Source: Blastocystis sp. subtype 4 (lineage: Eukaryota). Taken from it: a stretch of DNA of 57,082 nt. The stretch is from NCBI RefSeq assembly GCF_000743755.1, contig NW_014569517.1:1-57082 (forward strand). The letters run 5' to 3'. A model generated the notes under the pieces. That model ran no database searches, had not been told where the DNA came from, and saw nothing but the letters and a program-made list of their open reading frames with translations. Every line of letters starts with the position of its first letter. Position 1 is the first letter of the stretch. Below, one piece after another: positions 1-31,811 of the stretch. The position numbers were made by a program, and so were the translations under genes.

Positions 1-736
<736 letters not shown>

Positions 737-3625: not shown

Positions 3626-6600
3626 ATGGAACGATTTACTTCTCAGTTAGGACCAAAGATGGATGTAAGTAATTTTTAGTCTACCCAGTCAGACTATATG
3701 GATAAAAACTCGGAAGAGCTTTATCGATCTGTAACTTGTGTTGTTAGATAGAGAATTAGGGAGTTTTTGATTCTAGCGCTTCACGCGATTGGCAGAAGAA
3801 GTCTCTCTTTCCTCATGTATTCTTTTTCACCTATATTGATGATTAGTTGATGAATGATGATGATGAGATTCGGGATGACTATGACAATCTACGAAGTAAT
3901 TTTGAAAGTCCTCTGATGAGTTTGGTTTCAATTGGAGAGTGATTGACAGATACTCGTTTGCGCAAAGTTTATGCATGGTTAAAACTATTTATTCGCTACA
4001 CTCGGCTATACTGGGAATCTGTAATTGAATGAGGAGTTGGTCAGGAATAGTTGATGCTGTTCTCTCTCGTATTTTTGGTTGTTATTGTTGGTATTCGAAC
4101 CTATATATACGATTGGTCCGAAAGACACAGTCTCATGATCACAGTGATCGAAGTTGTGTTCAATAGCATGATTGTCATCGATTTCTTTCGAAACCTTATC
4201 GATGCCCCAGAAAAGATGGAATTCATCTTCTCCATGTACAATTTGTCGTTTCATATTCCCTATAGATATGGCCTGTTCAACTTTGCTGCTGGTATTCCCG
4301 TGATTATTGTCACTGTACTTCCAAGGCGATTATTCTTAGTATATTTCTTCGTTGTTGAATATATCCTTTGTCTAAAGGTGTTTGATTTCCTTCACCGTAC
4401 TGCGAACGTTCTTCTTCTTCTTATATCTCCGTCGTATGAAACTATGGAGGAAGGCTGTAGTGGAGTATCGTGAACGAGAGCTAGTAATTACAGTATGTGA
4501 ATTAGCGCTCTTTGCCTTCTCATTTGGATGTTGGATTTATTGATATCCTTCATATAAAGGTTTATATACAAACACAGAACGTTCTGTAGTGGAGTATAGT
4601 GTTGTAGACGCATTGTACTATGCCTTGGTGACTCTGACTACTGTTGGTTATGGAGACATCACTCCTCAGACTCGAGCAGGACGTTTTGCAACAACCTATT
4701 ACATCGTATCTGTACTGTTTTGGCTTCCATCAAAAGTTCGAGTTGATAGATGTGACTATGTCTAGTTGATGCGACTACTGTCTTCTCCTCCTACACCTCG
4801 AGATCGATTTACGAAGGATACAATGAAGAAACCATCCCATGTGGAACATGTGGTGATTGTTGGATATTATCAGGAATTTTTACCCATGCTGATCAGTGAG
4901 ATGAAAGAGGAATCATCTGATTATCTCCAAGACACCATTTGTATGAGAAATATTCTGATGATGAGAGATAGTCGTAATTCTAACTCAAGAGAAAGTGAAA
5001 GTTCCTGAGATGACAGCAATGTGTGGTCGATTTGCTTCCCATGTTCAGATCATTGAAGGTTCACCTGTTGACATCATATCCATGTGTCTTCAAATTAGAC
5101 TATCCTTCATTATCACTCTTCTTGTCTTCGTGCTAAACTCTTTGATGCTTATTCTGTGTATGTGATTCCTTATCCAACTTGGAGGTAATTATTCTGCTAG
5201 TTCTTTCATTCTCTAGTTCCAATCAACAACAAGCCTGGATGCGATTGATTGTCAATGCATTAGAAACAAATTTCTTCTTCTATCGATCTGATTTACGTCG
5301 GACATTTCATTCTCTTAGTCAGTTCTAGAAGTTCAAAATAACCGTTTCACGAAGCTTCTCTCTCTTCAGACTCCAGCACCAGACCCATCATTAAAACCAT
5401 CTTTAGAAGCTCAGATCAATGAGTATGAAAGTGGAAGTGAAGATGGAACAGAAAGTCTTCATTCAGATCACCAATCGATGATGAATATGAACTTTCCTTC
5501 AATTAGTGAAGCTTTCCGAACTGGTGATGGCTTATCGTTTGGAAGTTTCCCACAGTACACTAATTCTGATCTATCATGGTCTGTTCAAGATCCTCGAAGA
5601 AAGATTAATTCAATGGGAGATATGTTGGTGACTACAAGAGCTTCTCCAACAGAATTGCATAATGATACTCACTCCATGGAACGACTACGACAAATGTTGA
5701 TAACAAGACCTATATGTCGTATATATTACGAATCAAATCGTCAATATGGCTACTATCGCAAATACAGACATCTTTATCACGATCGAGTTTATCTTCTGTT
5801 TCATAATTAATTCGTAGTATATTTCTGAATTTCTGTCAATTTCACCAGAGAATTTGATGAATCGGATAATTAGTTTTGAATTGACCTGCAAGGGAAGCTG
5901 GACAATCTTTTATAATTTGTTCATTAATAATGAACACTCATTTTTGCCAACACTCTCACCAATCACGACAACGCGAAGTGACTTTAGGTATGTTTGATTA
6001 GATGTATAGTGATTAGTGATTACTTTGATAATTATAACCTATCATTATTTCATAAAAACAAGGTTATTCGAGCTCCTGAATACTTCTATGGTAAGCCTTA
6101 TCACTTGTATGTATTGTATCGTTCCTATTCTGTAGTCTGGTATTCGTCTTATTCAAGTATTGTCATACTCTGACCATTGGTCTTGTGGTACTAATTTACA
6201 AAAGAAATAGACTCTAGAAATCATCTTATTCACGTCAACTCAGTAAGGTTCTCTTGAATACATGCAAACGGGAATTAACAAGTTTGGATTTTATTATGGT
6301 TGTGACACAGCAGAAGTAGGATTTGGAGTAATTCTTCATACTAGATCCAAAGATATCAATCAAACCATTCAAACCAATTTGACTTCAATCGATGCAGATT
6401 ATCGGGAATATGGATCAATGGATAAGCATTGTAAGGATTTCCATTTCAATTCACAAAATAGTCCGTTTTCCTGGATTCGAGTTATCCTCCAGTTTTTGTA
6501 CACAGCAAGGTTCATTATTCGCATTGCATCGTGATATGGATGGTGAGGTATTGCGAGTGGCCAAAGATTGCATTCCAACCTCAGGTACATCAACATCGCT

Positions 6601-8067
6601 CTCTCATCGTGGTACTACAAGTCGTGCACGTCTACCTCCCAGTGAGCCTGATACTGGTATCGAGTTGACTGACATCAGGGCAGTTCCCAAACAGTTGTCA
6701 TTAGAAGGATCTTTGGTGACCAGTGCCATTCCAGATACAGAAGCTCCAATTCCTTCATCAGATTCCATACGATCCTTACCAGGACTGGATAGTGAATCTG
6801 TTTCTGTAGAGAAGAAATCGCGTGAAAAACGAAATATGGTGAATGCAGTTTTGATGGATTACGTGTTTTGCGTGAGAATATTTGGTGGTTTTGAGTAATA
6901 GGGCGATATGGATCATATTTATACACAAATCCTAACAATTTTGGATTTCCAGAAATTGTATCGAAAATCAAATCAATTGCTTTGTATTATCATCTTCTGT
7001 GAATCTCCCAACAAAGGTAGGAGTTGTGTTATTGTTACATGAAGATCTTCTGCAAGCGTTGCTTACTCAACCAATTCTTCTTTACGTATTTGATCAGTCT
7101 CCATATTACAAGCATTCCTATACAAGTCCTGACATCAATCATGTTCATGCTTATGTCAATGAACAGATTAGTAATCTGTGGGATGTAAACCCTTCTTGGA
7201 TGATGGATCACAAGCCAAGAGTGGTTCGATTGCTTCAAGCAGAGAGATTGGTGATTTCAGAGTACCGAAGTCCAGATCAGCTAGAAGTAGGGTATATTTC
7301 GTATTCATTGAATATAGTGTATTTTCAGTACTAATGATAGAGAGAATACTTCAATATCCATAATAGCAACAACGATTCTAGAATTATATCAAGGTAATTC
7401 ATGTTGTAGAATGATGATACTAGATTATGAAGTAGAACTAAGTGGTGTATTTGAAGGAATCAAACAGGTAACTAATGATCTCTCTTCTTCATTTAGATTG
7501 ATTATCTTTCTCATGTATTGCTTCTGTTTCCTCATTTTGAAAATTCTGGATCAGTATTTTCACCTCTTTCATCGTATGTAGCTGAAAATGGACTCGTTGC
7601 AAGCAATCAACTTTCTGGTGTTTCAGATGCTCTTTGTACATCGTAAGAGTGAATTAGAGGTACTTATGAAAGCATTGATCTCAATACATCCTCTCTGTTC
7701 CTTCCATTAACACATTTCAAACCACATCTCTTTGACATTTTGATGTCGATCTTTCTTCCAAAGGAGTACTGTAGTAAATGGGGTTCCCTTGTCATCTAGA
7801 TTATTATCCAGTATTGTCCTATGCCTATCCTGATACTATCCCTCTACCATATGGTGAGGTGTTTTTGCGCTTATTGACATCCTACGGAATTGTCTGTCTT
7901 GGAGTCATATCAAAAGCAAGTGGGTTACCAATTAGGTGAATCATTGGGATATCTGGATGATCTATAGTTTGGCTTTCCCTAAGAATGATCTAATTGTGTC
8001 GTATGGTGATAATTTGCTGTGCTTACGGGCAAATATGAACTTATGTTCAGATGGGCTATTCGTTTGA
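3626..8067 (+). CDS. Slo/BK-type (RCK-containing) potassium channel, many introns; start may be 3697
   Basis: Pore DALYYALVTLTTVGYGDITP (TVGYGD at 4640-4657), upstream TM segments, HVVIVG and IIEGSP RCK-like motifs, C-terminal YPTYGEVFL..L..YGIVCLG and FPKNDLIV..GD. Confidence 0.88.
4361..4400 (+). other. U12-type AT-AC intron (40 nt) in the K+ channel gene
   Basis: ATATCCTTTG...TTCCTTCAC-CGTAC; removal gives VVE-LRTFFFFLYLRRMK (S4-like). Confidence 0.85.
5076..5116 (+). other. U12-type AT-AC intron (41 nt) in the K+ channel gene
   Basis: ATATCCAT...TCCTTCAT-TATCAC; removal gives IIEGSPVDI-SSCLRAKLFDAYSVYVI, fitting the RCK pattern. Confidence 0.82.
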
Positions 8068-8101
8068 TTTGATGTTTCAAACAGCAATTAACCATTGTAC
8101 A

Positions 8102-9576
8102 TTAACACTTTCGAATCACTTGTTTATTCGTAAAATTCCGCTTCAATTCTTGTAAAAACTCATGATAACGTTCACGCATTATCACACGACCATCTGGTCC
8201 TCGGTTGTAATACAATTGTCCAATGAACTCACCCCAGTATTTGGAACTAATCATTAAATCAATCTCAGACATACTGTCTGTGAGGGATATCCACAGCAAA
8301 TCCTTTAGTCAGGATCTGGAAATCATATCCGACGAATCGAAGATGTTCAAGCCACTGAACCTTGTTATAGCCATAATTAATGAATCGTTCATCAAAGCGA
8401 GGCAATGAATCCGTCTTCTTTACCATCACATATCTAGAAGTCATAATATGGAGATTATTCTACGGTTCCTGTGTTGATCCTTTAAAACAACGCACTCTTG
8501 TGAGAAGTGGCTGATAATTATCATCATACCATCTATCGAAGAAATAATCGTACTATGAAAGTAACCCTCTTTACTCCATTCAAAGGATATATGCAAATGT
8601 TCTTTTGGTCGGAAGGTGGAACAACGCTTCTTCGCAATACATTCCTTCAACTGAGAACGGTTGTTTGGAATCTTCCTTGAAGCCCTGCATTTATATTCCT
8701 CTCCAAATATTACCTCAAAGCACTACTTTTCCAGGAACCAGATTCCACACCCTTCAATTCGAATGCAGGAACAATAACAGCCAAATCATCACGAGCGAGT
8801 TCATTTGATGGTAATTCCATTAATGCTTCTCGAAGACCCACTAGACATCAACCATTCTTTGAGAGGTAACATGATGGCCACATATCCATATCAGCTAACC
8901 AAAAGTGGCTTGTTTTAACAGCTTCGATAGCCAAATTTCGCAGCATATTGATGGGATAGTTCTTATTATCCTCAGCAATAAACTCAGTAAGATGAAGACG
9001 ATCCGGATAGGCAGTGCTTCGCATAGCCTGACGATAGTCTTTTTCGTTCGTTCTTGTAATGAACATAGCGATAGAGAACTCTCTACACATGACGGACATC
9101 ATTGATCACAACCCAGTCCATCGTTCTAGCATGAAAGGGAAGAATTCAACTCTTTCAATCCTATACAGTGACAATTGCAGAGATACTACTTACGTAGATT
9201 GCGTGGTTAGAGTGACATCATATCCAGAGCTTGGACTTGGACTTACCGTTGACTGAAACTCCGAAGACAATGGTCTTAAGGAAGACATTTCTCTAGTGAC
9301 AGTCTAATGTCTTAGAAGAACGATAATCGTATTACATTGAATTCTTGTCTTGATTCGGATGAGTGGCTATTGTTTTCTACTAACACGACGTATTTCTACA
9401 ATTCACTCAACAAAACATGAAATTACCACATGAGGAAAGGGAAAAGAGGGTCCAGAACGCAGTATATCAAAAGAGTTCGAGGAGATCCAACTACGAGTAA
9501 GACCTTTCGAATAGTTTCACAAAAATACAAAGAATGAAACGATGACAATGAGAGATGTCGATGACATAACACTCAT
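8102..9576 (-). CDS. GT49-family (LARGE/B4GAT1-like) glycosyltransferase; start approximate
   Basis: YPINMLRNLAIEAVKTSHFWLADMDMWP (DxD), EPY..VK...LPRFDERFINYGYNKVQWLEHLR, FAVDIPH. Confidence 0.88.
8550..8590 (-). other. U12-type AT-AC intron (41 nt) in the GT49 gene
   Basis: Minus strand ATATCCTTTG...ACTTTCAT-AGTAC; removal joins FRPKEHLH to DYFFDRWY...CFKGSTQEP. Confidence 0.85.
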
Positions 9577-9631
9577 GACTCCGAAAAAAGAATGATCATT
9601 CTAACAAACACTTAAGCACATATAAAAAAAC

Positions 9632-10529
9632 TTAGTGGTGAGCAAAAAGACTGGTCAAAGCAGCTGCACCAACAAGAGCGACACTACAACTCATCTCTCT
9701 CAAAACTTTCCTACCCAATTCCGATTCCAGCATCTGTCAAATCATGATTCCGTCTTTGCCTTTTTATTTCTTCATCTGACATATATTTCTTATTAGTTTG
9801 ACTAGCAGTAGGTGGACGTTGATAATAGGGATTGCGAAGTACCTGACCACAGGGACAACGGAACAATTCAGCACCTGGAGGAGGATACAGCATCATATGA
9901 CAAGTGGTACATGCAACTCGAGGCTACAAGTGACACGAAAAGAGAATTCTAACTTGAATGTGTTGCTGAGTTGGATACGATGGCTGTTGAGGCATATATC
10001 CAGGAGGAACATATTGGGATTGCGGTACCATATACTGTTGCTGAGGCATATATTGTGGTTGAGGAGGTACATATTGTGGTTGTTGTTGAACGTACTGTGG
10101 TTGAGGCATATATTCAGGTTGTTGAGTAGGATACTGTTGAGGTGTATAATAAGGGGTTGTGGTTTGCGAATATGAACAATATGAAACACTTGAAACCTCT
10201 GAAGGCTGCTGCATCTGAGCAGGATACGTATTTCCAGACACTGTTACAGGTGTAGGATTTCCATTGTTAGACACAGACTGGTATCCTGTAACGCTCATAG
10301 ATTGCTGTAGTTGCGATTCCGTAGGAAAAGACGGAGGATTCGAACTACTTTCAGTTACAGCATTTCCATTCGAAGAAGTTACCGTTACAGGTATCGTTGT
10401 AACAGCAGGAGGATTTACAGGTGCCTCCATATGAGGAACAGTTGATATACTTGTAGAATCACTGGATTGAATTGATTGCATTGGTGCAGAATACACGCTA
10501 CTAGGAGTTGAAACTACTGTAGGATTCAT
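9632..10529 (-). CDS. Ser/Pro/Gln/Tyr-rich protein with LSD1-like zinc finger and hydrophobic C-terminus
   Basis: MNPTVVST..., PQQQY-like repeats, spliced CTTCHMMLYPPPGAELFRCPC, ends VALVGAAALTSLFAHH*; TGTTTGTT on minus at 9603-9610. Confidence 0.75.
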
Positions 10530-10901
10530 AGAATAATGATCAAAGTATGAAGAAAGTGTGAAACGAATCTTTCGAATTGTTTGTAGAGAATGAGATTCGG
10601 CTCCAAACTGTGTTTCATAGGATAAATGGTAACACAAATGGTAACGCCACAACAGAAGGAAAAACGAAAACCTTGTTACATCGGTTTCGATCAAATCATT
10701 TCGTATATTTAATAGACTGAATGATCCTATTTTGCCAACAAATGAGAGTTTTTCAACATGAACAGCAATGATCAAAGGTGGAAACGAGGAAGGAAGCAAT
10801 GGTCAGCGTCGTCGAAACGTCGAATCTGAATAAACCACGGGAATCCTGTCCTGGTGATAACAGACAGTATCTATTTAGCTAACCAGTCTTTTGTTGATAT
10901 C

Positions 10902-13034
<2,133 letters not shown>

Positions 13035-13329
13035 TAATGGATTTGTAGCTTCTATTTATGGAAGATGTTTGAATGAATCTTAGCATGTTTGTTGGAATTG
13101 TGTGACACGATTGTGTTCCAACACGCAAGTATAGTGAATCAATGTCTCGTCTGTGTCCGCCACTTTCTTGGATATACCGCGGTTGTTCTCACTAATCCAG
13201 TTGATCCCTATCTACCCAATTCTGATCTATTATTTAATAATTGCTTTTTCAGAATCAACTACTTGGCGAGCTCTACATTAGCTCTTGTAATTAGTACGCA
13301 AACAACCTGGTTAATCAGTACGGTCAACA

Positions 13330-15017
13330 ATGGATGCTTTGTTTTCTCAAATGAAACGCCAGGTGATGAATTGTGCAATGAGCTAATTTGTAGAAGCTTA
13401 TCTTAAAGAAGAGATGTAGTAGTTGTGGTTGCTTTCTAGGCAAGAAATCAGGTGTCCACTCCTGCAAAGTTTGCAGTAGGATAACGTAGAAAGAGAGTAA
13501 GAGTATAGAGAGGGAAATCTGTGACCGTTGCAAGCAAGGTAAAATGATTCTTCCAGGTTATACTAGTCCGAAGACTGTTTGTGTTCAGTGTTGGAGAAGG
13601 TTGGTTATCCCAACGAATACAGATTGGGCAACTTGTTGCGACTTCTTCGGTACACCTGAGTGTGATGAGATTGTAAATAACTTTGTTTCGTTGTCTACGA
13701 TGGCAACTGAGTTTCTAGCGCATGGTGGTTACTACTACTCGTGGGAGGTGATTCGTCAACACGTTGTGAATGGTTACTTTGTCTATCAGAAAGTAAGTGA
13801 ATGGAAAAGATATAATTCAAAGATCAACCGTGATGAAGTAGTGGAGGATAAACAATGTGTATGTGATATGTGTTGGTATTTGTGGATTCGTTGTGTTGGA
13901 AAACGATGTCCATTCAAGAGTGGAACCATTTTCTTGGAAGATGTTAACTACAAGGTGTTCAATGCGATTAGTCGACTTGGCTATTCTCGTGTACTCGTAC
14001 GCAGTGTATTTTCACTTCTTCTTGTTGATGTTTAGGAACATGTCGTTGGTCAACGAGTTCCTTATTCAATGCGAATTGGTAGTTCCCATCTATCAGAATT
14101 TGTATTTTTGAAATTCCAGAGATCATTCATAGATTGAGTTTTGTGAAAACAAGGCTCAATGGCTGCTTCCAGAGGGTGAAACAGATATCGTCATGTCACG
14201 AGGTCGTGTAGGACGTGGCTATGAGCAAGTGGGATTGGACTTGGTTCCTGGTCGAGATGGTGTGGAGTTGGCTCTTCCTTTCAATCGCCATCATCTCCTT
14301 TTCGGTCGTGTTCCTCTCAAGCAACCAGATCAGGCCACATTCACATTTTTGAAGTTCGAGAATTATGGAACAGAGGCTCTGTCAGATATCGTGTTACATG
14401 GAATCCAGTATGGTTTGCATGTAGTCAAACGAGATCGTGAAGAGAAGATGCCTTCACGACGAGAGACTGCTGGTAAGAAGATCATGGGTCGTTTTCAAGA
14501 ACTGGTACAATTGATCTTTGAATTCCAATCATTAAAACCAATCATTAAACATGATACTATGGAACAAGTGATGGATCGAGCATATGTGAAGGGTGTGTCG
14601 TATATGTGAGAATGGAAGGAGGTTGTAATGAATAGTTATCAAGTGGTGAAGATGACGATGACCAAACTGAATTCATATCTAACTAATCCTAACTCGAGTA
14701 AGTAAGAAGAAGGAGAATAAAAGATAGACCCTGGTCCTTTATCAGCGATTCAGAACTTGTATGGTCAGGCGTATGACTTCCTAGATTTCATGATTCACGA
14801 TCCAACGATGGATCACTTGGATGTGAGATTCGGACGTGAAGTTATTTTTGACATTCAAGAGTTACAATCGAGAGAAATGATTGTTGAACCACGGAGACGA
14901 ACTGTGGAGGAAGTGTTACCACAGGCGGCTAGACCTCGTGGTTTAAGTGATTCAATGATCCCTCGGGTCCAAGTGGAGAATGATACCGATGGTTTCAAGC
15001 GCTTTGAACGTCTTTAA
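13330..15017 (+). CDS. FYVE-like zinc-finger protein
   Basis: Spliced MDALFSQMKRQKLILKKRCSSC...HSCKVCKREICDRC...KTVCVQCW (8 Cys in FYVE spacing; basic RRHH motif degenerate); remainder unrecognised. Confidence 0.65.
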
Positions 15018-15062
15018 AGGGTTTTGTTACAAACACGTTGCGATATTAATTACAAACAGGGG

Positions 15063-17355: not shown

Positions 17356-18474
17356 CTACTTTGGCTTGTTATACACACTTGTCTTGACATCATCTACAAG
17401 TTTGTCCACATTCGTCTTCTTTAACAACTCTTTTGGTAATTCCTTTGGTGGAGGAGGAATAATATCCTCCTTCTTCGAGAATGTCAGCCATCGCTTCAGT
17501 GTGATTCGTGCTTGCTTATTCACACAAATCGTCTGTATTCCCGCAAAGACAGAATTAACAATCCAATACAAACACAAACCCTAGATATCAACACCTCCTC
17601 ACAATGCTACAGATTGCATTTTAGCAGCCACAAAAATGGTAAAAAGAGACATTGCTCGCATCATATACTTTGTCCCAATTTGACCATTTGCATTCATTCC
17701 ATCAGCCCCTAATTCTGTCATAAAGAGAGTAGACACTCCAGCAATAACAGGCAGAACAAAGTATGGATCTGGAATGGCAAGATTGGGGAACCACAGACAA
17801 CCACCCTCGGCTACGGCGGGGACTGTCTCGCACAGCTTACGGATTCCAAAAAAACACGACATAATCACAGGAAGCTGGATCAACGAACCCAGCATAGGTC
17901 CCATGGGAGAAACACCCGCCTGCTTATAGATATCCATCATCTCTTCACGGACCTTCATTGCGTCAGATGCCAAACCCATGCTTTGTGAGAGACGAGCTCG
18001 TTCCACCAACTTATTGAGTTCCGGCTGAATCTCTTGCATTTTCTGTCCCTGTTTGGTTGCCTTAATACTAAATGGTAGTAAGATGACTCGGAACCCAATA
18101 CACACTATACATCATCTCCTCAACCCATCTTCACCTCCTGTAATTGCACCCCACCAAGGGAGACCTAGTTGATTCATCCACGAAATCAAAGACACGACCC
18201 AAGTCGTCGGTGTTCCAACAGAAACCCCAAACAGTCCATACTTCAGTGCAGTGTTGTTGATATCGCACAACCAAAGATGTTTATTCTCTTGGATCATCTT
18301 CACCTTCTGCTTGAAGGCTTCGAAATGAATTTCGCGACGTTGTTGCACCCTACTCAAATCCAACCGTGAAGTTGAAGCTTTCACGGTCATAGACGATACT
18401 CCCCTAATGGTCGTAGCTACCAAAATTAGATACCTCAAAAGGAGTGTCTGACGTGTCACAGAGCGAAGCATCAT
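17356..18474 (-). CDS. OXA1: Oxa1/YidC membrane insertase (mitochondrion-related organelle)
   Basis: GLPWWGAI, FRVILLPF, IQLPV, GGCLWFPNLAIPDPYFVLP, LYWIVNS..Q; Arg-rich N-terminus. Confidence 0.93.
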
Positions 18475-18531
18475 CAAGAAAGCGAAGTCCCAAAGCAAGT
18501 GTGAGATCGAGTATTATTCTTTTCTTGTATC

Positions 18532-19139: not shown

Positions 19140-19235
19140 GTGTTCATTTAGTATTTTGTTTGTTATTTTAATTTACTGAGGTACTGATATCAACGAGATA
19201 TAATCGTCTAGATAACTCAATTCCTTGTGAAACGA

Positions 19236-21032: not shown

Positions 21033-21036
21033 TATG

Positions 21037-21052
21037 TGTTTGTAGACAAACA
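21037..21052. terminator. Back-to-back 3'-end motifs of convergent genes: TGTTTGT-AG-ACAAACA
   Basis: TGTTTGTA on plus at 21037-21044 and TGTTTGTC on minus at 21045-21052. Confidence 0.6.
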
Positions 21053-21060
21053 AGATTCGT

Positions 21061-21835
21061 TTAATCAGAATCAGTGTAATAGTCCTTTGCACTGTTCTTA
21101 CGTGGCAAGAAGAAAGGCATTTTCTTTCCCTCATTCTCACTGTCTGATGACTCCAATGTCTCTCTTAAAGCTTTGTCTTCTTTACGTTGTTGTTCCTCCA
21201 CTACACGATCTTCAATGGCCTTACCCATAATACACACACTAACCATGATTCACTTTCTATATAATTACGCGCAAGGAGCATTAGCCAAAACATAGGTACT
21301 CACACTTCCATTGATGAGTCTTATGCTTAAGTGACAATCACACATATACCTCTCAACATTACCCATTCCTCTTCTTCCCATGACAATCGTATCAATCTTC
21401 TTCTCAACTGCATAAGAACAGACAACCTGGTGTTAAGAGGACACATACATTCAGAAACAGGATATCTTTGCAGGGTCGCCACGAGCGCAAACCACCTCCA
21501 CATTTTGGAATCCCTTGTCATTTGCAGTTTTCTTCATCTCATCTAAGTGTTCCTGAGACTCTTTCTTCAAACGGTCATTGACAACAACATCGTGTGCATA
21601 GGCTACATATTGAGTCAGACAAAGAGATTATACTGGGAGTCTTGAGATTCAACACATTCAGAACAAGAAGGGAGTCTACAGGCTTCATAATTTTCAAAAC
21701 CCATTCAAAGCAAGCTGTAGCTTGGATGGAAAAGTCCATCGGAACGAGCCAGCGCAATCCCTATCGATATCACCCATTCCGATAAGCACCTACAGTACAT
21801 TCACCATTGCTCTCAAACACACCACTTTCTTCCAT
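21061..21835 (-). CDS. Universal stress protein (USP) family
   Basis: Spliced LRWLVPMDFS...ACFEWVL, GDPAK..VCSYAVEKKIDTIVMGRGGMG, GSVSTYVLANAPC. Confidence 0.9.
21427..21465 (-). other. U12-type intron in the USP gene (AT-AG 39 nt, or AT-AC 36 nt ending at 21430)
   Basis: Minus strand ATATCCTG...CTCTTAAC-ACCAG contains an in-frame TGA; the GT-AG alternative frameshifts. Confidence 0.8.
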
Positions 21836-22234
21836 TTCGTTGATCCTTTGGTGAAGTCACCAAAAAGTGGAAACAGAGCAACAGATCACTGTACAGATCG
21901 CGTTAATAATTATAAATTAGTCAAAGAATCACTGTTTCCTATTCTTGTTATTTCATTGTATTGATCCTTCTATAAACCCTGCTTTAAAATATGGAGTTCA
22001 TCTGAGAACTATCTGGGAAACGATTTAGGATTACAGGTTCTCTATTATGAGTATGAATAAACAATAATACTTTATTAAGGAAATCCAAAGAGATAATAAT
22101 ATAGATTCTGTGCATTGAACCTTGATCACTTAACTCTGGATTCTACAATCCTTATCTTTATCCCTATCTTCAGTTACATTCAAAATAATACAAATTCTGC
22201 TGAGCACTATCATTCATAAGGATCTTTTGCACAA

Positions 22235-22771
22235 ATGAGCTCTATACCTCCTGTTGCCAGTCTAGCACTGTTTGTTGATAGTATTTCCTATTAAGCCGTT
22301 AATTATTATCAGAACCTGTATTAGTCGTTCTTCTAGATGGAATTCATTTATATGGGATTCTACGGAGTGTGGATCAATATGGTGGGTTTTGAGTGTGACT
22401 AAATGTTGCTTACACTCTTTTAGGCAATTTTGTAATTGATAACTGTTTTGAACGTGTATTCCGTGATTTCTACTATACAGAAAATCAGTTAGGTCTTCAA
22501 ATTGTTCAGGGAAACAATACTTGTCTCATTTCCGATATAGTATGTTTATAGATAAAATTACTGATGGATAGAACGGTTCTCTTCAATCTTGTCCAATTGA
22601 AGGTATGCAATTGTTAAGCAATGAAGAGTTCATCGAATATATCAATCTTCCTGACGAAGAGAAAAGTATGGAGATCGTGGAATGGACCTAAACGTAGTGA
22701 AACGAAATCAGGGAAAGTCTTGTAGATTTGCCTCCAATGAAGACTACACCATCAGACTTGCTACTGTATGA
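22235..22771 (+). CDS. LSM1: LSm1-like Sm-fold protein (4 introns; absent from ORF track)
   Basis: Spliced MSSIPPVASLALFVDKPVLVVLLDGIHLYGILRSVDQYGNFVIDNCFERVF...GLQIVQGNNTCLISDI matches the Sm1/Sm2 motifs of LSm1. Confidence 0.8.
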
Positions 22772-23526
22772 TTGTATACTAATTATAGTTTGTAACAAAC
22801 AATCTCTAAAGAACGATTAGAACTATTGCACAACCAATTCTCATGTATTCTTGATCAACACACAATCCTTGTTTCTGCCCTCTTTTGCCACCATCGTTTC
22901 CCAAATGACAGATAGACTGCAATCACTGAGCTTATTCCATTAAATGGCAATGCAGAAACATAGAAAATGATAAATCAGTATGAGTTATGTTATAACCATT
23001 GTTGTTACACTCTTCCCCGAAAGATGATACCATCCTATTATCATTTCCCATTCATTGAGGATCAGTTTGCAGTTAAACGACCATGAGTTAAGTCTCACAA
23101 TGAGTTATCTTCCTTCCTCAAATGACAATGAACATACCAAGAAAACTGACAATTCCTTACCTTCTCCTTCACTATTATCTCTTATTGAAACAAATATGAC
23201 AAAATGAGTGGAGAATCGAAAATGCCCCCTATTTGAAATATGCCATATTTCTTAGGTATTATTGTCTATAACCTTTTTGCCCCATCTTGCAAAAATCCTC
23301 CATGCTTACAAATTAAAACAACAATGTCATTTACGATTATCTCCCTGTTTTGTGGGTGAAATAAGCAATTAAAAGAAACTAAACAATGATTATGTTCATT
23401 CCGGCTATACCTCGAAAGGAAGGAATTCATTCTTTTTAACCAGTATATAAGAGTTTGGAAGGACTTAACAAATGACAAAAATAGACCAGATTTTTCGTAT
23501 TCATTATCTTCTATACAGTAGAACAA

Positions 23527-25055
23527 ATGGACTCATTCATTGCATTCTTTCGAAGTCTCGAGGTGGACCATATCGAGATGATGAACCCAAGAAGACCATT
23601 AAATGGTGAAGGTACTGTCTTCTTTAAGGGAGCCTATTATGGATATTCAATGAAAGCTGCGTGGATGGATGATAAAAAGGAAGGTCTAGCGGTGATTTAT
23701 GCTCCTGATGGGAGTGTTTTTGCCGAATTCACTTGTATAAATGATGAAATCATTGACGTTCTGACTTATCCTCCACAAACCTCGAATCGTTCCCCTGCGT
23801 TTTCACCTCAAGCTATTCCGCCAGTAGTAAGTGCTCCAAGCGGACAAGGTAATCCTCAGTCATATTTTTCATCAGGTGTAATGAATACAACTAGCTCAAT
23901 GACAGATCCCCAGTATGGTTACAAGCAACCAAGATCACAGGAAATGAGCGTTATTAGTACTTCTTCTATGGTAAATCCCAAACCAAGTGTTGTGAGTATT
24001 CCAGCGAGTCCTGATGTCAGTGTTATCTCAACCCCTGCTAGTATACCATCAATTGCTGTTTCAACACAATCTAGCGTTGGGACAACGAGGCCAATCTTCG
24101 TGGCTCCTAAGCCTGTTGAAGTTACTATTCAGTCCGATGAAAGCATGTCTCATCCTGGATTAGTCAGTCTAGGATCCCCTGAGAGTAATCCTCCTCTCCC
24201 AACATATCCTGGTCGTACGCTTCCTTTAGAGCGTCAAAGTCTAACTCATCGCTGTCTTGAAAGAAAGGGGCTATTTTGGACAGTTGTGGGAATCATCGTA
24301 GCCGTGTTGATTCTGATTGTTCTCCTTTGTGTATATTTGGCAGCACGCGAAGAAGGTGTGGAATTGACCAGTGATAAGGTTCGTATTCCAAAGAATGTGA
24401 AAACGATTACTGTGCGAGAATTAGAATCCGGATCCCTCGCCTTGACCAAGATTGATCTTGATGGGTTACCCAAAGTAACATCATTTACTGCGGTTTACAT
24501 GTCATTCCCCAGAATCTCCTATGTGTCTTTAACCAGTCGGTTTGAATTTTCCTTTCAATGTAGATCTTCCTAAACTGAAAACCATTACTATCGAGTCTTT
24601 AGCTTTCCAGTACACACATAGTTTTACTCTTAGTAGTAAGTACTGTTAGCTGTGTTGAATATAGATCTACCAATGTTAGTGGCAATCAAGTTAGGTGATC
24701 AGGCTATGACGCTGGATAGTGTATTTTTATCAGGAAGTGATTATAAGAATTCTGTTACCTTGACAGGTAGGCGTGTTGAAATGTGGTGATGTAGATCTCC
24801 CCTCTTTGAGTTCTCTGACTATTTACAATAACTTTGAATATGCTGGAGAATTTACCGCCACTAGTAAGTGTGTTGCAGAACTGTGATGTAGATTTCAATA
24901 CAGGGTATACACTTTTGTACTTATCTGATATAAGTCATTCAATTTGTAAAGTGACAAGACAATCTATTTCTAGTTGATGTGTTCTAATTGATTCATGTGT
25001 AGGAGCAGGAGTAATTGAATCCTATATTAATGACGCTATTCGATGCTCTGCGTGA
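23527..25055 (+). CDS. Single-pass membrane protein with Ser/Pro-rich N-region and C-terminal LRR-like repeats
   Basis: TM LFWTVVGIIVAVLILIVLLCVYLAA, then repeats LDGLPKVTSF, LPKLKTITI, LPMLVAIKL, LPSLSSLTI on successive short exons. Confidence 0.75.
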
Positions 25056-25139
25056 TTTGTGTATGAATATTAGTAGTTACAAATGTTTATGGATCATAAA
25101 TCAACGGACATAAATAGATCCCATCTTTCTAATAGGTTA

Positions 25140-25212
25140 GCCCGTCTAGCTCAGTCGGTAGAGCGCCAGGCTCTTAACCTGGTGGTCGAGGGTTCGAGCC
25201 CCTCGGTGGGCG
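25140..25212 (+). tRNA. tRNA-Lys(CUU)
   Basis: Cloverleaf GCCCGTC/GGTGGGC; anticodon arm CCAGG-CTCTTAA-CCTGG; TTCGAGC T-loop; T-runs downstream. Confidence 0.98.
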
Positions 25213-25313
25213 ACTTCTTTATTCTTTTTGGTTATTCTCATCAACAAACATTCGGATTCGGAGCTTTCAGAATAACCCAGAAAGGACATATAAGGACAAT
25301 CCTCATATGACAC

Positions 25314-26529
25314 TTACTCGGAAACAATGGGGAGGGCTTCTACCCCATAATACTGTTTCTTCAACTCCTTATACAGATGCCAACGACTCATAGCATATCC
25401 CTTACTATCCCAGTCTGTTCCTAATTCCGTCTGCATGACTGCCCAAACAAACCAGAAAAAGAAGGAAAAGCACTGGAAACGATGCACAAGTTGTTGCATC
25501 TCATTCACATTGCTTTCAGATGGATCCTTTCCATCTACATGAGACTCTGATGAAACTCCTACATCGTTCTAAAAGATAGGCATGAATGAAATTCTTCTCT
25601 TCTTCATCTGTAGGATGCAATGAAAAATCAATCCAATAGGAGGGAGAATCATATCTTGTCATCCACTCGCAATAGTGATGACAGATATCCAATGGAGCTG
25701 GTAACAGACACGTATACTCAAAATCGATAATTAGTACTTCACCCTTTGCATTCTTCAACACATTCCCACGAAGCAGATCCTGATGGCCATAAACTATATC
25801 TGTACTCTCATTTCGAATGAGTTCTTCATTTCGATGGATTTCCTCAAGCAAATTGCAAATGTTCAGATCTTTAAACAGATCGGGATGATCTTTCTCTGAG
25901 TACTAATATCCAAAATGTACAATGCTTCTGACAGATTTGAGCCCATGATCTCATAACAGAGTGAAACTCGTCAAAGTGAGCAATTTCAGTCTATTTGTTG
26001 TTTGAAGAAAACTATTCTACTCGGATGTTATGTAGATCTGCCAGTTTCGCTGCGATTCTTCTAGAAATCACCGGATCACGACAACCAAGGTCATTCAGGG
26101 ACTATCTTATTATAGAACCAAAGCAATACAGTGAATCCAACTCTCCATAGCTCCATCCGTCCTTCAGGAAAGGAACACAGAAGCTCGATACCAAAGTTGT
26201 TCTTGGAAAGAACTGAAAGGAACTTTAATTCCTTTTCTCGATTCAAGAAATCGCTACTTCCTACGCATTACCACTTCCTTGATCACATACCAGCCCCATA
26301 GATACGGAAAAGAATAGGAAAATCATCTTCATCGGATTTCTTGGATAACTTGTAGATTATGTTCGTTAATCCATCTATCGCCTCATAAGTGTTGTCATAT
26401 CTCACCCTTGTTCTGGACCATATTGAAATCGTCTACAGAATGCACGTCGTTCCATTCTGGTATGGTTTGAAGTTGTTTCCAGGCAAACTGCTTTCTTTCG
26501 TCATAATTGAGTTCCAAAAGTGATGACAT
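25314..26529 (-). CDS. Choline/ethanolamine kinase
   Basis: GLTNIIY, LFRIYG, REKE, HQDLLRGNVL (Brenner-like motif), IIDFEY, DICHHYCEW, FFWFVWA. Confidence 0.92.
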
Positions 26530-26588
26530 CTTTGTATCAGTCTAGATAGAATGTTCTTACTCCTTCTTCAGTGATAGAAAGAATAATG

Positions 26589-26596
26589 AACAAACA
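26589..26596 (-). terminator. TGTTTGTT 3'-end motif of Nit2
   Basis: TGA-CG-TGTTTGTT; the T of the stop is 5 nt before the motif. Confidence 0.8.
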
Positions 26597-26598
26597 CG

Positions 26599-27644
26599 TC
26601 ATTTCAACATTCGAAATTCATACATATCAGAACGCTTCTGCTTCAAGACAGGGATTGCTTGCCTACGTATCACAGGAAATGCCAGTCATAACCTCACTTT
26701 ATCACACTCACTCAAATCAACATCAGCAATCAGAACATCCTCCTTTTCATCCAATTCGCCAATCACCTTTCCCCAGGGATTGACCACAATACTATGACCA
26801 TAGGCAACATACGATCCATTCACATCTCGAGCGGGAGAGCAAAGGACCACAAAGGATTGAGTGTCTACAGCACGACCCTTTGCAAGAATCTCCCAATGAA
26901 GAGGTCCAGTTGTCATATTAAACGCAGATGGATATACTAGTATTCTGCATCCCATTTTCGAATATGCAAGACTACAAGTGAGTTGGTAACGAAGATCCAA
27001 ACCTCAGTTCTGGGAATCGCATATCATAACATACACCAATTCCAATATCAACAGCCGTCTTTGGAAGGGAGCAATGATATACAGTAAACGAATCACCAGC
27101 TGTCAGGGTCTCACTCTCTTGGAAACAGATACCACCGGGAACGTTCACGTCAAACAAATGCATTTTTCGATGTTTGGTAATCAAATCGCTCTCCGGAGAT
27201 ATGGCCATTGCAGTGTTGTAGACCTTGCCATTGCATAATTCCGGAATGCTGCCACCGATAATAGGAATACGATGTTTGCGAGTCTCTTCCAATAACATCG
27301 ATACCGAAGGGCTTTTGATTGGATCCACGTCTTTGCAACTCTGGTCATTATTCTTCCCTCAAATACCAACTGTAGGAATGCATTCCGAATTTTGCCGAAA
27401 CAACTTCGTATCGTAGGAACTAAAGAGTAATAGAAGTGATTCAAAAATACCTGTTGAAGCATTCAGGAAGAACCACCAGATCGGCTCCTTGGGACACTGC
27501 TTTACTGATCATGGTTCTTGCCTTCGCTAAATTGATCATTTTGTTCTATTCTTCATATCCTTTCCGAGATTTAACAGAAGAAACCATCATCTGGCACAAA
27601 CCAATTCGAAACTTCATCGATTTGATGGCAGCTGATGCAGACAT
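26599..27644 (-). CDS. NIT2: Omega-amidase Nit2 (nitrilase superfamily)
   Basis: Catalytic triad in LPECFN, HRKMHLFD, GVCYDMRFPE; AFNMTTGPLHW; ends RQAIPVLKQKRSDMYEFRMLK*. Confidence 0.94.
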
Positions 27645-27743
27645 GGAAGTTTGTTGATTGTTTGAAGTGAGGAATGAAGTGACATATGTAACTATCACTA
27701 GTAGAATAGGTTGAATATGTTGTTTCCGGTTATAATTCGTGTT

Positions 27744-27751
27744 AACAAACA
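27744..27751 (-). terminator. TGTTTGTT 3'-end motif of Clp1
   Basis: TAA-TGGT-TGTTTGTT. Confidence 0.8.
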
Positions 27752-27755
27752 ACCA

Positions 27756-29349
27756 TTACTTTTCATTCCATGTAATCTTACCCTTCAATAGTATATTACC
27801 AGGCAAATCTCCTCCAAGAGGAGTCACCAATCGAATCACTCGATCATTAACATTAACACTGGAGACAAAAACAAATCCGAGAATGGAAGAAGTAGGAAGA
27901 TCTTTCACTCTACAATTCATTCTATAATTATATAGTAACTCTTTTGCATCAGTTACAGCGAGGATCTGATGATACAATTCTTCTGCTCCAACTTCACTTA
28001 CTTTCATCATTACTTCTTCTTCAGCTGCTTTCGGAGCAAACTACAGTTCAAGGACCTCTTCACTGTTACAGTATCTCGATGACTCACAGAAACGCGATCA
28101 TTATACATTACAACCTTCACTTCATCCAGACTTCGTACTAACTGACTTGCAACAGCCAATTCGCCATCGGTAGCAATATATCCTATGCAATGAGAATCAC
28201 AATTTACTGATCACCATAAAAATAATTATCAATAGACAATCGATTCTCAAGATCATCTGCTCCCATAGGAGTTACAACTCCTTTGGAAAGAGGTAGTTGT
28301 TTAACACATAGAGAAGGATATGAGTCCCGCAATACATTCTATAGATTAGAATTCATCAAAATAGTAACATAGATGAAATCGTCATGAATGACCAAAATCA
28401 AGTCGATTTTCAACAGCTCGATGACCTCATCTAAGAGAGGTCGACTTCCATCTTCCTTGTACCAAGAACCCCCATTCACAATCAATCCTCCATGAAATGC
28501 CTTCTCATCATTCTTCATTCGCGTTTCCACATCAGCAGCAATGGAATGAAGACAACGCTTGAATCTATCTCACAGCTCTGTTTGCATTTCCTACAATTCT
28601 GGATTATCCATACAAGATTGGAAACCATAAAACTCAACACGAGGAGAAGGAAGGAACTTTTGAACTCTCTAGAAAGTCATTGTAGAAAACAAAGACTACA
28701 GGCGTCAAAATGCTTTCCTTGTTAACGACAACAGCACTCATGCAGCCAGGCACGGTGATATTTCCACTAGCAATATCTAGGTCTAAATAGACTGGAGACT
28801 CGTTGAAACGAACCTAAGAGTCACTAGAAGCATCCATTTCAACAGCATATGATAGTAACGTTTGAGCTAATGTATATTTGCCGTGATTTGGGTTGCTAAG
28901 AATAAGAACCTATCAGTAAGATAAAGCAGGAGACAATCACTCGAGGAGCAGTTCTCGAGTTATATGGATGTACATTATTACGTTCAGTTTGTAACTAGTT
29001 ATTACCAACATCCAAAAGATCCACTTGTTTGTGAATATCAAGATACAAGGGCGTAAGACTTTCGTTTGATACATAGGCCCCTTTACATCGACCTTCCAGC
29101 GTTACTTCCGAATCAAACCATGCAAAGAGTGCAAACTACATTTCAGCCAAAGTATCCTCAAACAACATTTCGATTGACGATTGTTTGTTTGTCGCGGATT
29201 TGACATCCATTAATTTCAATTCCTCCGTGATTAAGCTACATATGTTAATCACTTCTCAAACAGTCTACCGTAATCTTGATCGGGTCATTCTTGGAACATT
29301 CAACACGTAACTCTCTTCCCGCTGGAATCCGGTAGTGTTCAGTATTCAT
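27756..29349 (-). CDS. CLP1: Clp1 (pre-mRNA cleavage factor / RNA 5'-kinase family)
   Basis: ELRVE N-terminus, YAVRFNESPVYLDLD...VPGCMSA, GLIVNG.SW, LPLSKGVV, NYFYG, ILGFVFVSSV...LVTPLGGDLP. Confidence 0.9.
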
Positions 29350-29504
29350 CGAAAAGAATATTGACCAAACTCTAGGGAGTGATTTTAAACTCCTTAACAC
29401 TAGTTTTAGAACAAACAACTGGAAATGTCACAAGTTGCGAAACAGCCTACGAGATACCCTTAATCAGCCTTAGGTTTGTCTGCACTTCTACTTCATGATT
29501 TGCT

Positions 29505-29699
29505 TCAGTTACCATACTCTGTTTCAGGATTCTCTCCTTGTGGGGTATCCTTAGATTTACCATCAGTTCCTTGACAAACCTTCTTTGCGAAACAACTAAT
29601 GCACGACTCGGCAAGGAAAAGCACTAATCCCGTCGCAACTCCAATACCCACAGTTTTGCCTGGACTAAGATCATTCAACAGTTTCGTTATCGTATCCAT
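29505..29699 (-). CDS. Small single-TM protein (64 aa)
   Basis: MDTITKLLNDLSPGKTVGIGVATGLVLFLAESC...; TGTTTGTT on minus at 29410-29417. Confidence 0.55.
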   Translation of the reverse strand: MDTITKLLNDLSPGKTVGIGVATGLVLFLAESCISCFAKKVCQGTDGKSKDTPQGENPETEYGN

Positions 29700-29746
29700 T
29701 GTGTCTATAGTCAATGAAAGAATGACAGTTCTTTTCTCCTTCTACT

Positions 29747-30531
29747 ATGGAAACAGAAATTGAAGTTATAGGGGATAAGTAAGTTTATTTCTGATATGTT
29801 TCTAACTAACGCAGAAAGATGTTTCATCTTTTCCTCAACAAACAAGACTTCAAGTTTAGTTCCGGTCATTTTATTGCTTACCAAGTATATTGTCGACTTA
29901 CTTCATCATTCTAGGGTTTTCGCGAACCACTTCACGGACACAATTATCATGCCACCGTATTGTTTGAATTTACTGTGTGATTCGCAGATTGCTATGAAGG
30001 GACAGCTGAATCCTGATGGGTATGTGATGGATTTCGGTGATGTGAAAAATGTTCGTTATTGGAATGTATGTCACTCCTAGTATATGCGTATTGAATGCAA
30101 GAAACTGAACCAGAAGTTTCTTCTCCCAATGAAGAGTGATGTCCTCACTGTCAGTCCAAAGAAGCTTATTCATGTGGTAGATCAAAGAGAACGGAGACAA
30201 CTGGGAAATTACAACTGAAGATAACTGCTTCTTTTCGTAACTATATGTGTGAATCGTAATCAACAGGTTTCCAAAGAAGGACTGCTGTTGTCTTCCTCTT
30301 GTTCACTCTTCAGCTGAGGAGTTGGCGAGATATATCGTTATTCTTTTGCCTTTTCCTCACTTCTAGGTGGGAGAACTAATCGAATCCATTTCTCTTCCCG
30401 TTCTCCAGGTATGTCTCTACCTGAGGACTAATAAATAGAAACGAGGTATCTACGAAATTACAGTGGGAGTTAGCGAGATCGAAGGTCAAGAGGCTAGATA
30501 CACCACATCTGTGAACTATAGTTCTCACTAA
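29747..30531 (+). CDS. 6-pyruvoyltetrahydropterin synthase-like protein, Glu-type (PTPS-III); 8 introns
   Basis: Spliced FKFSSGHFIAYQGFREPLHGHNY...GYVMDFGDVK...FLLPMKSDVL...LPLVHSSAEELARYI...VSE. Confidence 0.9.
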
Positions 30532-30606
30532 GATGTTTGTCACCAAACAAGTGGAATGTTAGGATTATCCCTTTCTGGAAAGTGATCATTATTTAGCAGT
30601 TTTCTT

Positions 30607-31811
30607 ATGTCAAACTATACGTGCATCACCTGTTCTGCTATCTTCGACAATCAAGAAGAGAGAGAGAAATATCCAATGAGTTCGTTTGATTCATCTTATG
30701 GTCCTTCACAATGTCACCCATTTCAGATCGGATTGGCATAGTTACAATGTGAAACGGAAGATTGCTGGACTATCTCCATTATCGAAGGAGTTATTCGAAG
30801 AAAGACAACGTCACTGTCTTAGAGCTTCCTTTTGGTGATATCTAGTGAAAGCCGCTGAGACTGAAGGAAAGAAACAGGAGAAATTGTATTGTGAGATCTG
30901 TCACAAGTCCTTCGTTTCCAAGAACTCCTTTGATCAACATGAACGAAGCAAGCGACATCTTCAAGGACTAAAGAAGTATCAGGATGACTTCCAAAACGCT
31001 CCTGAGGAGGAAAAGGAGGAATCCCAAGTAGAAAAGGTCACAAAGGGACACACTGAGCCTTTTACACCAGAGGAATATGAGTTCGAACCATCACGATGTC
31101 TGTTCTGTCGATTGGAGAGCGATACTTTTGATGCGTATTTCCTATTATTGTCCAACATATAGAAATCTTGAACATATGGCTGCAGTCCATTGTTTCTTCA
31201 TTCCTGATCATGACAGTGTTATTGACCTGGAAGGTCTTATTGACTATTTGGGTCAGAAGATATCCATTGGTTGTGTCTGTGTCGGTTGTAACCATGGTTT
31301 CAAGAGTCCAGCGGCAACTCGAGATCACATGCTGAGCAAAGGTCATACTCGTATGGCTTATTCCACTGTATAATTTAAAAATGAGTCAATATCGTAGGAA
31401 GAGGATTATGAGGAATTTGAAGAGTTCTATGACTACACAGAAGCTAATGAGAACCCAGGAGTGACTTTACAAGCAACAGCCACAGGAGAACTCCAACTGC
31501 CTGATGGGCGTATTTTGGGAAACCGAGAATACATGCGATATTACAAACAGAATTTCAGTAGTGAAGGAGAGAAACGGGAATGTGAGGATCAAGGAGAAAT
31601 GTGATTACTAGCGATTCTAAACAAGTTGTTGTTGGAAAATGGGGGACAAGGAAAGAAACCAATGGCATTAGTGGCTTATGAGGCTCAGAAGAGTGAATTA
31701 ACATCCAAGCGTGATGATGTGGAGAGATTGAATCGATATGCGATTCGAGAACGACTGCGTGCTGGCTTGAATATGAATAAGATCCATTTAGCTCACTTCA
31801 GTCATCGATGA
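30607..31811 (+). CDS. REI1: REI1/ZNF622 60S biogenesis zinc-finger protein
   Basis: YTCITC...HFRSDWHSYNVKRKIAGL, CEICHKSF...HERSKRH, CLFC, HM..HCFFIPD, LQLPDGRILGNREYMRYYKQ. Confidence 0.93.
30669..30717 (+). other. U12-type AT-AC intron (49 nt) in REI1
   Basis: ATATCCAA...TCCTTCAC-AATGTCAC; removal restores EEREN-HFRSDWH of the first zinc finger. Confidence 0.88.

Follow-up and report, generated by a model that had tools for sequence, protein, structure and literature searches.

Five short candidate introns beginning with ATATCC lie in the 57,082-nucleotide stretch of contig NW_014569517.1 of Blastocystis sp. subtype 4 (ST4) analysed here (the window), and they raise the question of whether such introns are real, which spliceosome removes them and how their branch boxes are recognised. 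The five are as follows.

4361..4400, + strand: intron 1, U12-type AT-AC, 40 nt, phase 1, in a potassium-channel gene
5076..5116, + strand: intron 2, U12-type AT-AC, 41 nt, phase 0, in the same potassium-channel gene
8550..8590, − strand: intron 3, U12-type AT-AC, 41 nt, phase 0, in a GT49-family glycosyltransferase gene
21427..21465, − strand: intron 4, U12-type with mixed AT-AG ends, 39 nt, phase 0, in a universal-stress-protein gene
30669..30717, + strand: intron 5, U12-type AT-AC, 49 nt, phase 2, first intron of REI1/ZNF622

All five are confirmed as real introns at these positions. Spliced contigs of run X1 skip 4361-4400 (AT..AC) and 8550-8590 exactly, each with an ambiguity of 0, and contain a 41-nt skip at 5076-5116 (ambiguity 1) and a 39-nt skip at 21427-21465 (ambiguity 2), the last being read as AT..AG because no other placement gives sensible ends. 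This RNA support consists of assembled contigs of one run rather than raw reads and may not be independent of the annotation of strain BT1, and X1, flagged 'RNA?', is taken as RNA from its spliced contigs and a poly(A)-like end. For 30669-30717 the support is an annotated protein, with the junction present in the NCBI protein KAK8806128.1 of strain BT1 (P0118); the first intron of the subtype 1 (ST1) REI1 orthologue OAO17234 is likewise 49 nt long and AT-AC, with a CCTTCAC box and an A at −10. The exact boundaries given in an earlier note on this DNA are thereby upheld, since all four introns that were compared with transcript contigs are skipped there and the fifth junction is present in KAK8806128.1; the check on junctions that the note proposed gave the same answer for those four, at the level of assembled contigs. 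Removal of each intron leaves an open frame, again as the note had it, and restores conserved protein sequence; intron 21427-21465 contains in-frame stops.

That the five are chance matches or assembly artefacts is accordingly a reading to which we give almost no weight, although motif counts lend it something. Searched strictly, as ATATCC with an exact CCTT[AC]A[CT] box, the motif is present four times in the window against 0.15-0.43 expected by chance, and one of the four occurrences is false: the match at 17930-17966 was rejected as an intron, as it runs antisense to a gene and its removal gives no open frame. A loose motif has 11 starts against null means of 3.2-6.6 and a maximum of 13, which is chance level. 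The motif alone is therefore no proof, and the proof lies in the spliced contigs, whose exact skips refute chance or artefact for four of the five. Uninterrupted pieces of run X3 DNA (4739-5215 and 21203-21470, both unspliced) span introns 5076-5116 and 21427-21465, and these, the restored protein and the orthologous ST1 intron argue in the same direction. A wider ATATC[CT] scan of the window gave no convincing sixth intron; 33868-33919 opens a frame, yet starts with ATATCT. Five introns in 57 kb compare with 1.2-1.5 expected from the ST1 density (Poisson P 0.008-0.02), for a window chosen post hoc and a class of introns that clusters in genes.

The introns fall in four genes.

3626..8020, + strand: potassium-channel gene with a long cytosolic part, ends approximate
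8088..9290, − strand: GT49-family glycosyltransferase gene, ends approximate
21056..21830, − strand: universal stress protein gene, with a poly(A)-like loose end at 21056 and an approximate 5' end
30607..31811, + strand: REI1/ZNF622 pre-60S factor gene

The potassium-channel gene matches Pfam Ion_trans_2 (E 3e-15) over 4562-4735, its exons from 4266 onward are joined in one transcript contig, and we infer that the channel is BK/Slo-like. Pfam PF13896 is matched (E 4e-7) in an exon downstream of intron 8550-8590, and the Usp match (E 0.003) on a 25-aa exon of the 21056..21830 gene lies under the curated cut-off. Existing annotation treats these introns differently: in place of 21427-21465, model KNB45762_3 of the published ST4 annotation has a GT-AG intron of 66 nt, and the existing REI1 model begins within intron 30669-30717. 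Other introns of the window appear in the published ST4 intron sheet, and its transketolase exon is identical to ST4 protein KNB45757 across 586 aa, which places the window in ST4. The ST4 sheet has no row starting with ATATCC, all 336 such rows being in the ST1 sheet. The present analysis thus corrects the ST4 annotation for five introns, none of them entered correctly in that sheet.

The signals of the five introns are those of the U12-type class. All begin with ATATCC on the coding strand, as the earlier note had seen, and two of the five carry the full ATATCCTT. Near the 3' end each has a CCTT-x-A-Y box in one of the forms dominant in the published ST1 class, none of which matches the human TCCTT[AG]AC exactly; branch positions are inferred from these motifs.

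4388-4395, + strand: box TCCTTCAC of intron 1, branch-like A at 4394 (−7), box ending 5 nt before the intron end
5103-5110, + strand: box TCCTTCAT of intron 2, branch-like A at 5109 (−8), box ending 6 nt before the intron end
8555-8562, − strand: weak box ACTTTCAT of intron 3, branch-like A at 8556 (−7), box ending 5 nt before the intron end
21432-21439, − strand: box CTCTTAAC of intron 4, branch-like A at 21433 (−7), box ending 5 nt before the intron end
30702-30709, + strand: box TCCTTCAC of intron 5, branch-like A at 30708 (−10), box ending 8 nt before the intron end

With box-to-end gaps of just 5-8 nt in all five, a polypyrimidine tract is absent. Where the U2-type profile has a GT, GC or GA start, about 30 nt and an AG end, these introns start with AT, measure 39-49 nt and in four of five cases end in AC. 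The GT-AG skips of the window (41 among the matches listed) measure 28-33 nt, so the two size classes do not overlap, and the separation from the roughly 30-nt GT-AG class that the note described holds against the listed skips.

The distance from branch to 3' end does not separate the two classes in this way. The branch-like A of the five introns lies at −7, −8, −7, −7 and −10, and in the first 30 ST1 minor rows at −7 (18), −8 (11) or −9 (1); among the 41 GT-AG introns of the window, 23 have a T-n-A with the A at −8, while no other position is so occupied in more than 8. A compressed branch-to-3' distance is therefore common to major and minor introns. Of the compressed geometry claimed in the note, the box 5-8 nt from the end stands, and is genus-wide, whereas its specificity to minor introns fails on the 23 similar GT-AG introns. 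The shared distance also favours removal of the five as non-canonical introns by a major spliceosome known in this genus to tolerate GA-AG and GC-AG ends; GA-AG introns have been reported in Blastocystis in the open text of PMC5608401 (Gentekaki et al. 2017), and a CCTTCAT box at −8 is found in intron 4530-4559, which is of major size. We consider this very unlikely given the invariant ATATCC, the extended CCTT box, the separate size class and the xTATCC start found in none of the 41 GT-AG introns; in addition, that text describes ST1 and ST7 as having the complete minor spliceosome.

A U12-type class in Blastocystis is itself already known. The open text of PMC5608401 gives 346 U12-type introns of about 35,000 in ST1, with four minor snRNAs and seven specific proteins, and reports U11, U12, U4atac and U6atac for ST1 and ST7; the open text of PMC10639083 (Larue and Roy 2023) finds Blastocystis minor introns to be the shortest among more than 3000 genomes surveyed, with a median of 39 nt. 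Two statements of the earlier note, that a minor spliceosome has been reported in Blastocystis and that the system is abundant and miniaturised, thus agree with what those texts had published. The ST1 and ST7 minor introns resemble those of ST4 in their ATATCC starts, lengths of 37-50 nt, mostly AT-AC ends and frequent phase 0, and they share the CCTTCAC/TCTTAAC box with an A at −7 or −8; the REI1 intron matches between ST1 and ST4. The known class now extends to a third subtype, ST4. Human and plant U12-type introns, as far as the open text of PMC3584512 (Turunen et al. 2013) describes them, likewise have this 5' site, a CCTT-type box, no pyrimidine tract and an AT-AC subtype. They differ in being far longer, and in that GT-AG is the commoner subtype and AT-AG is disfavoured, while AT-AG ends occur in 52 of 150 ST1 minor introns (35%). 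The human branch-to-3' optimum is 11-13 nt in the same source, an optimum and not a class definition, whereas the A lies at −7 to −10 here. Hundreds of 37-50-nt minor introns in Blastocystis thus offer a natural lower limit for minor-spliceosome geometry, at about 31-40 nt from 5' site to branch and 6-9 nt from branch to end.

How the branch box is recognised bears on the suggestion, made in the earlier note, that the U12 snRNA is altered. The boxes were tallied by eye in 150 of the 336 ATATCC-starting introns of ST1, not ST4, with at least two duplicated rows among them. TTCA is found in 77, TTAA in 40, TTGA in 20, TTTA in 4 and other forms in 9; TTCA also occurs in four of the five window boxes, so that the preference for TTCA over TTAA that the note reported is seen in both sets. 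The upstream CC is intact in 67 of 77 TTCA, 4 of 4 TTTA, 13 of 20 TTGA and 9 of 40 TTAA boxes. For TTCA against TTAA the Fisher P is 5e-12, and it is 8e-7 when only the 90 rows tallied once the pattern had been seen are counted; the order TTAA, TTGA, TTCA/TTTA is that of pair, wobble and mismatch opposite U. That TTCA keeps CC and TTAA mostly loses it is as expected for a canonical U12: with the canonical U, both sites are weak in 10 of 141 boxes where 28 are expected, while after a U-to-G change both would be weak in 38 where 20 are expected.

A U12 re-tuned from U to G, pairing with CCTTC as in Physarum, would fit the modal ST1 box CCTTCA (67/150), the four TTCA boxes of the window and the precedent of Physarum, where U12 and branch motif changed jointly (open text of bioRxiv 2020.10.12.336362). 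It also has the better duplex energies, with the U-to-G form beating the canonical one on all five boxes by 0.8-3.7 kcal/mol in free duplex folds; these energies are undecisive because G always binds C better. The common TCTTAA and GCTTAA boxes would then be double mismatches, enriched rather than depleted, a C before the branch A is frequent in major introns too (5 of 23 with the A at −8, and many ST1 TCAC/TCAT ends), and cmscan has found the U12 genes of ST1 (AV274_4643) and ST7 (on CABX01000028.1). On this evidence from the boxes an altered U12 is disfavoured, and the re-tuned form seems to us rather unlikely. The only Rfam hits in the window are two tRNAs, with no snRNA among them. Metagenomes scanned for a U12 motif gave at least 117 loci, none of those listed being assigned to Blastocystis, and are uninformative on its U12; 82 of the 117 listed loci are U12-like, all with T at the tested place, Rfam confirmed 6 of 12 submitted, and two loci followed in full came from another eukaryote and from a bacterium.

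Our preferred reading, which we hold to be likely, is that the five are ST4 members of the published U12-type class, removed by the minor spliceosome through a standard U12 branch site. Under this reading ATATCC would be read by U11 and then by U6atac, and the U12 branch-binding site GUAAGGA, which is the Rfam consensus and not a Blastocystis sequence, would pair with the CCTT-x-A-Y box with the A bulged. One weak U12-box pair would be tolerated and two rarely, giving two box forms: one has a mismatched C ahead of the branch A and keeps CC, the other has a paired A there and lets the upstream C drift. The 3' end would likely be fixed by counting 6-9 nt on from the branch A, in line with this genome's major introns, which would leave the last base free to vary (AC, AG, AT, AA). 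Minor introns exceed the 30-nt major ones by about 10 nt because their span from 5' end to branch is 33-40 nt as opposed to about 23 nt, and the longer span likely reflects the footprint of the U11/U12 particle. Several observations run against this reading: C before the branch A is strongly preferred over G and T (77 : 20 : 4), which mismatch tolerance leaves unexplained, the perfect CCTTAA box is rare (9 of 150 in ST1), and U-to-G duplexes are the stronger ones. Physarum polycephalum, in the open text of bioRxiv 2020.10.12.336362, is similar in having many minor introns, a lineage-specific box confined to a narrow range of positions, and some AT-AG ends. It differs in number (about 20,000 minor introns, against about 1% of introns in Blastocystis), in a TTTGA box whose A lies 9-12 nt short of the intron end, and in two matching changes carried by its U12, whereas an unchanged U12 is favoured for Blastocystis on indirect evidence.

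End type and branch box are associated in ST1 minor introns, AG ends being found with 16 of 77 TTCA, 22 of 40 TTAA and 12 of 20 TTGA boxes (P 3e-4; P 0.003 on held-out rows), and the single TTAA intron of the window is its single AT-AG intron (21427-21465). These associations could point to two minor sub-classes, one combining CCTTCAY boxes with AC ends and the other YCTTRAC boxes with AG ends, each handled by its own U12 variant or state of the machinery. We regard such a division as improbable, since the association is partial with no clean split, S1 Table of PMC5608401 has one U12 locus in ST1, and a stronger branch pair offsetting the disfavoured AT-AG end suffices with one machine.

Since major and minor introns share their branch geometry, any GT-starting minor intron would be taken up at once by the major spliceosome, which may explain why the set is AT-only. 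GT-AG minor introns were sought in the first 30 of 155 GTATCCT-starting ST1 rows, where none has minor size and a box; 28 of these rows are 29-33 nt and 2 exceed 90 nt. A more tentative proposal, possible but doubtful at present, is an AT-only minor spliceosome with a 6-9-nt count from the branch A, about one third AT-AG ends, almost no GT-AG minor introns and a change in one core component, be it U12, U6atac or a protein that binds the branch or the acceptor. If true, such a system would serve as a minimal natural model both for minor splicing and for the conversion from AT-AC through AT-AG to major introns.

In the open texts searched, we found no description for Blastocystis of the TTCA box, of how far the branch lies from the end or of the share of AT-AG ends, which the logos in Fig. 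1 of PMC5608401 may display; nor did those texts mention the lack of GT-AG minor introns seen in the 30 rows or the covariation of end type and box. The term 'AT-AG' appears nowhere in the text of PMC10639083, and 'U12' nowhere in PMC10690189. Blastocystis provides a large natural set of AT-AG introns, a supposedly poor intermediate in subtype switching, and the AT-AG ends of 21427-21465, a point that the earlier note did not mention, place one such intron in ST4.

The earlier note had placed five short introns in the window. All are at the positions given, and 8550-8590 and 21427-21465 lie on the minus strand:

4361-4400 (+), intron ending in AC, branch-like A at -7
5076-5116 (+), intron ending in AC, branch-like A at -8
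8550-8590 (-), intron ending in AC, branch-like A at -7
21427-21465 (-), intron ending in AG, branch-like A at -7
30669-30717 (+), intron ending in AC, branch-like A at -10

As had been described, each starts with ATATCC and measures 39-49 nt, and its CCTT-type box stops 5-8 nt short of the intron end. Motifs alone are weak evidence for introns. The strict motif matches four times in the window against 0.15-0.43 expected under Markov models, with one of the four matches antisense to a gene, and the loose-motif count is at chance level. The antisense match, a perfect-looking ATATCC...CCTTCAT...AG stretch at 17930-17966 (+), was rejected as a motif false positive, since it opens no frame and lies antisense to an Oxa1-like frame.

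The five stretches are real introns and new members, in subtype 4 (ST4), of the published U12-type class. Sequencing run X1 is labelled as RNA only by a guess; its assembled contigs pass over dozens of GT-AG introns of 28-33 nt and have a poly(A)-like end, and thus derive from transcripts. These contigs skip 4361-4400, 5076-5116, 8550-8590 and 21427-21465 at the proposed boundaries, and the sole sensible placements of the four skips are AT-AC in three and AT-AG in one. Gap-free pieces in a second run, X3, cross two of the five introns. The X1 skips cover these four introns, and removal of 30669-30717 is supported by the annotated protein and homologues. Without it the frame is indeed restored: the N-terminal zinc finger of REI1/ZNF622 matches KAK8806128.1 (strain BT1) letter for letter and lines up in register with homologues from animals, plants and Amoebozoa.

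U11, U12 and U6atac act in minor splicing. The abundant, miniaturised minor system that had been suggested is already published: ST1 has 346 U12-type introns in 319 genes, and the four minor snRNAs are all present in ST1 and ST7, along with seven specific proteins (PMC5608401). A survey lists 253 minor introns for Blastocystis, 77% AT-AC and 49% in phase 0, the shortest of that survey with a median of 39 nt (PMC10639083). At the density of ST1, 57 kb would hold 1.2-1.5 minor introns, fewer than the five seen here (P 0.008-0.02); we do not read this excess as higher abundance, because the window was chosen for its introns and minor introns cluster in genes.

The miniature size is already known, and the compressed branch geometry is found in the major introns too. 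The distance is short, as claimed, with the branch at -7/-8 in Blastocystis compared with a best distance of 11-13 nt from the end in human minor introns (PMC3584512); among the first 30 ST1 minor-intron rows, read by eye, A stands at -7 in 18, -8 in 11 and -9 in one. Nor is the short distance confined to minor introns: 23 of the 41 transcript-supported GT-AG introns listed in the window have T-n-A with A at -8 and eight at -9, with at most six at any other position. We infer that the acceptor is set by distance from the branch in both spliceosomes. From 5' site to branch the minor class spans 33-40 nt versus about 23 in the major class, and this is the part in which minor introns are longer.

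The ST1 orthologue of REI1, OAO17234, is about 60% identical in protein, and its first intron, matched by first-intron rank, is a 49-nt AT-AC intron with CCTTCAC and A at -10. Between 30669-30717 and this row (OAO17234_1) the unusual length, the branch distance and a similar 3' half are kept. The published ST4 REI1 model begins within its minor intron. Three ENA proteins (P0116, P0126 and P0129; window 30698-31811), from contigs of about 1.0-1.1 kb, lack the downstream GT-AG introns and start at an ATG inside the same intron. These starts hint at retention of the REI1 minor intron in part of the transcripts, although gene calling or assembly could also have produced them.

We tallied branch boxes by eye in 150 of the 336 ATATCC-starting ST1 rows, in five blocks of 30. 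TTCA, said earlier to prevail, is the modal form (77), followed by TTAA (40), TTGA (20), TTTA (4) and others (9). Several points speak against a canonical U12: before the branch A, C is far more frequent than G or T, perfect boxes are rare (9/150), duplex energies favour G in U12, and Physarum offers a precedent of a co-evolved U12 (bioRxiv 2020.10.12.336362). However, a U12 altered from U to G would leave doubly weak boxes enriched (38 versus 20 expected), whereas under the canonical U12 they are depleted (10 versus 28). With the usual U opposite the base before the branch A, a good pair there would tolerate decay of another pair, and a mismatch would demand that the remaining pairing be perfect. 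Upstream, CC is kept by 23% of TTAA, 65% of TTGA, 87% of TTCA and 4/4 TTTA boxes; for TTCA against TTAA, P is 5e-12 overall and 8e-7 in the 90 rows read once the pattern was noticed. Because this order, TTAA < TTGA < TTCA/TTTA, is the expected one, U12 probably keeps its usual U, and the altered snRNA is not supported on this indirect test by covariation in 150 ST1 rows. The window TTAA intron, whose box has CTCTTAAC, agrees with the ST1 pattern. Neither the window nor the metagenome matches listed from a U12-motif scan gave a Blastocystis U12 gene; at two loci of that scan, divergent U12 snRNA genes were seen on contigs of eukaryotes:

L015, 1034-1190 (-), U12 gene, 86 bits, adjoining what reads as a myotubularin-like frame
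L037, 494-644 (-), U12 gene, 68 bits

The same 150 rows end in AC (90), AG (52), and AT or AA (8), a feature that the earlier note does not mention. Elsewhere AT-AG is reported to be disfavoured (PMC3584512). AG ends accompany 34/60 TTAA/TTGA versus 16/77 TTCA boxes (P 2e-5), consistent with a stronger branch pair compensating a weaker end. Scaled up, the AT-AC count is about 200; because this agrees with the 196 of PMC10639083, it suggests that the introns missed there are largely AT-AG. The first 30 of 155 GTATCCT-starting ST1 rows include no minor-looking intron; about 12 of these major-size introns are the first of their gene. In the literature searched we found no description of the AT-AG share, the box-end association or the lack of GT-starting minor introns in those 30 rows, which the Fig. 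1 logos of PMC5608401 and supplements may show. Some interest still attaches to the AT-only start, the large share of AT-AG introns and the box covariation.

Further host genes are a potassium channel with two minor introns, presumably BK/Slo-like, a GT49 glycosyltransferase and a universal stress protein. The minor class is missed by ST4 annotation. The window belongs to Blastocystis ST4: its transketolase exon is identical to ST4 protein KNB45757 and its introns are present in the published ST4 sheet (S11 Data, PMC5608401); among the rows listed, with the ST7 sheet in part, all 336 ATATCC-starting ones belong to ST1. The AT-AG intron 21427-21465 is annotated in ST4 as a 66-nt GT-AG intron. 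The ST4 channel model KNB45753 has implausible 15-, 17- and 54-nt introns in 3626-4500, and its 5' part needs re-annotation. At 4530-4559 in this gene, where KNB45753_7 is a 51-nt AT..GA intron, a 30-nt GT-AG intron may be a converted minor intron: it contains ATATCCTT internally and has a CCTTCAT box with A at -8. We also note in the window:

1-210 (-) and 424-736 (+), histone H3-like and H4 genes, free of introns and in divergent orientation, as read from the sequence
25140-25212 (+) and 38892-38965 (-), tRNA genes
39792-41688 (-), formin-like frame in which a segment of about 40 residues recurs in three near-identical copies
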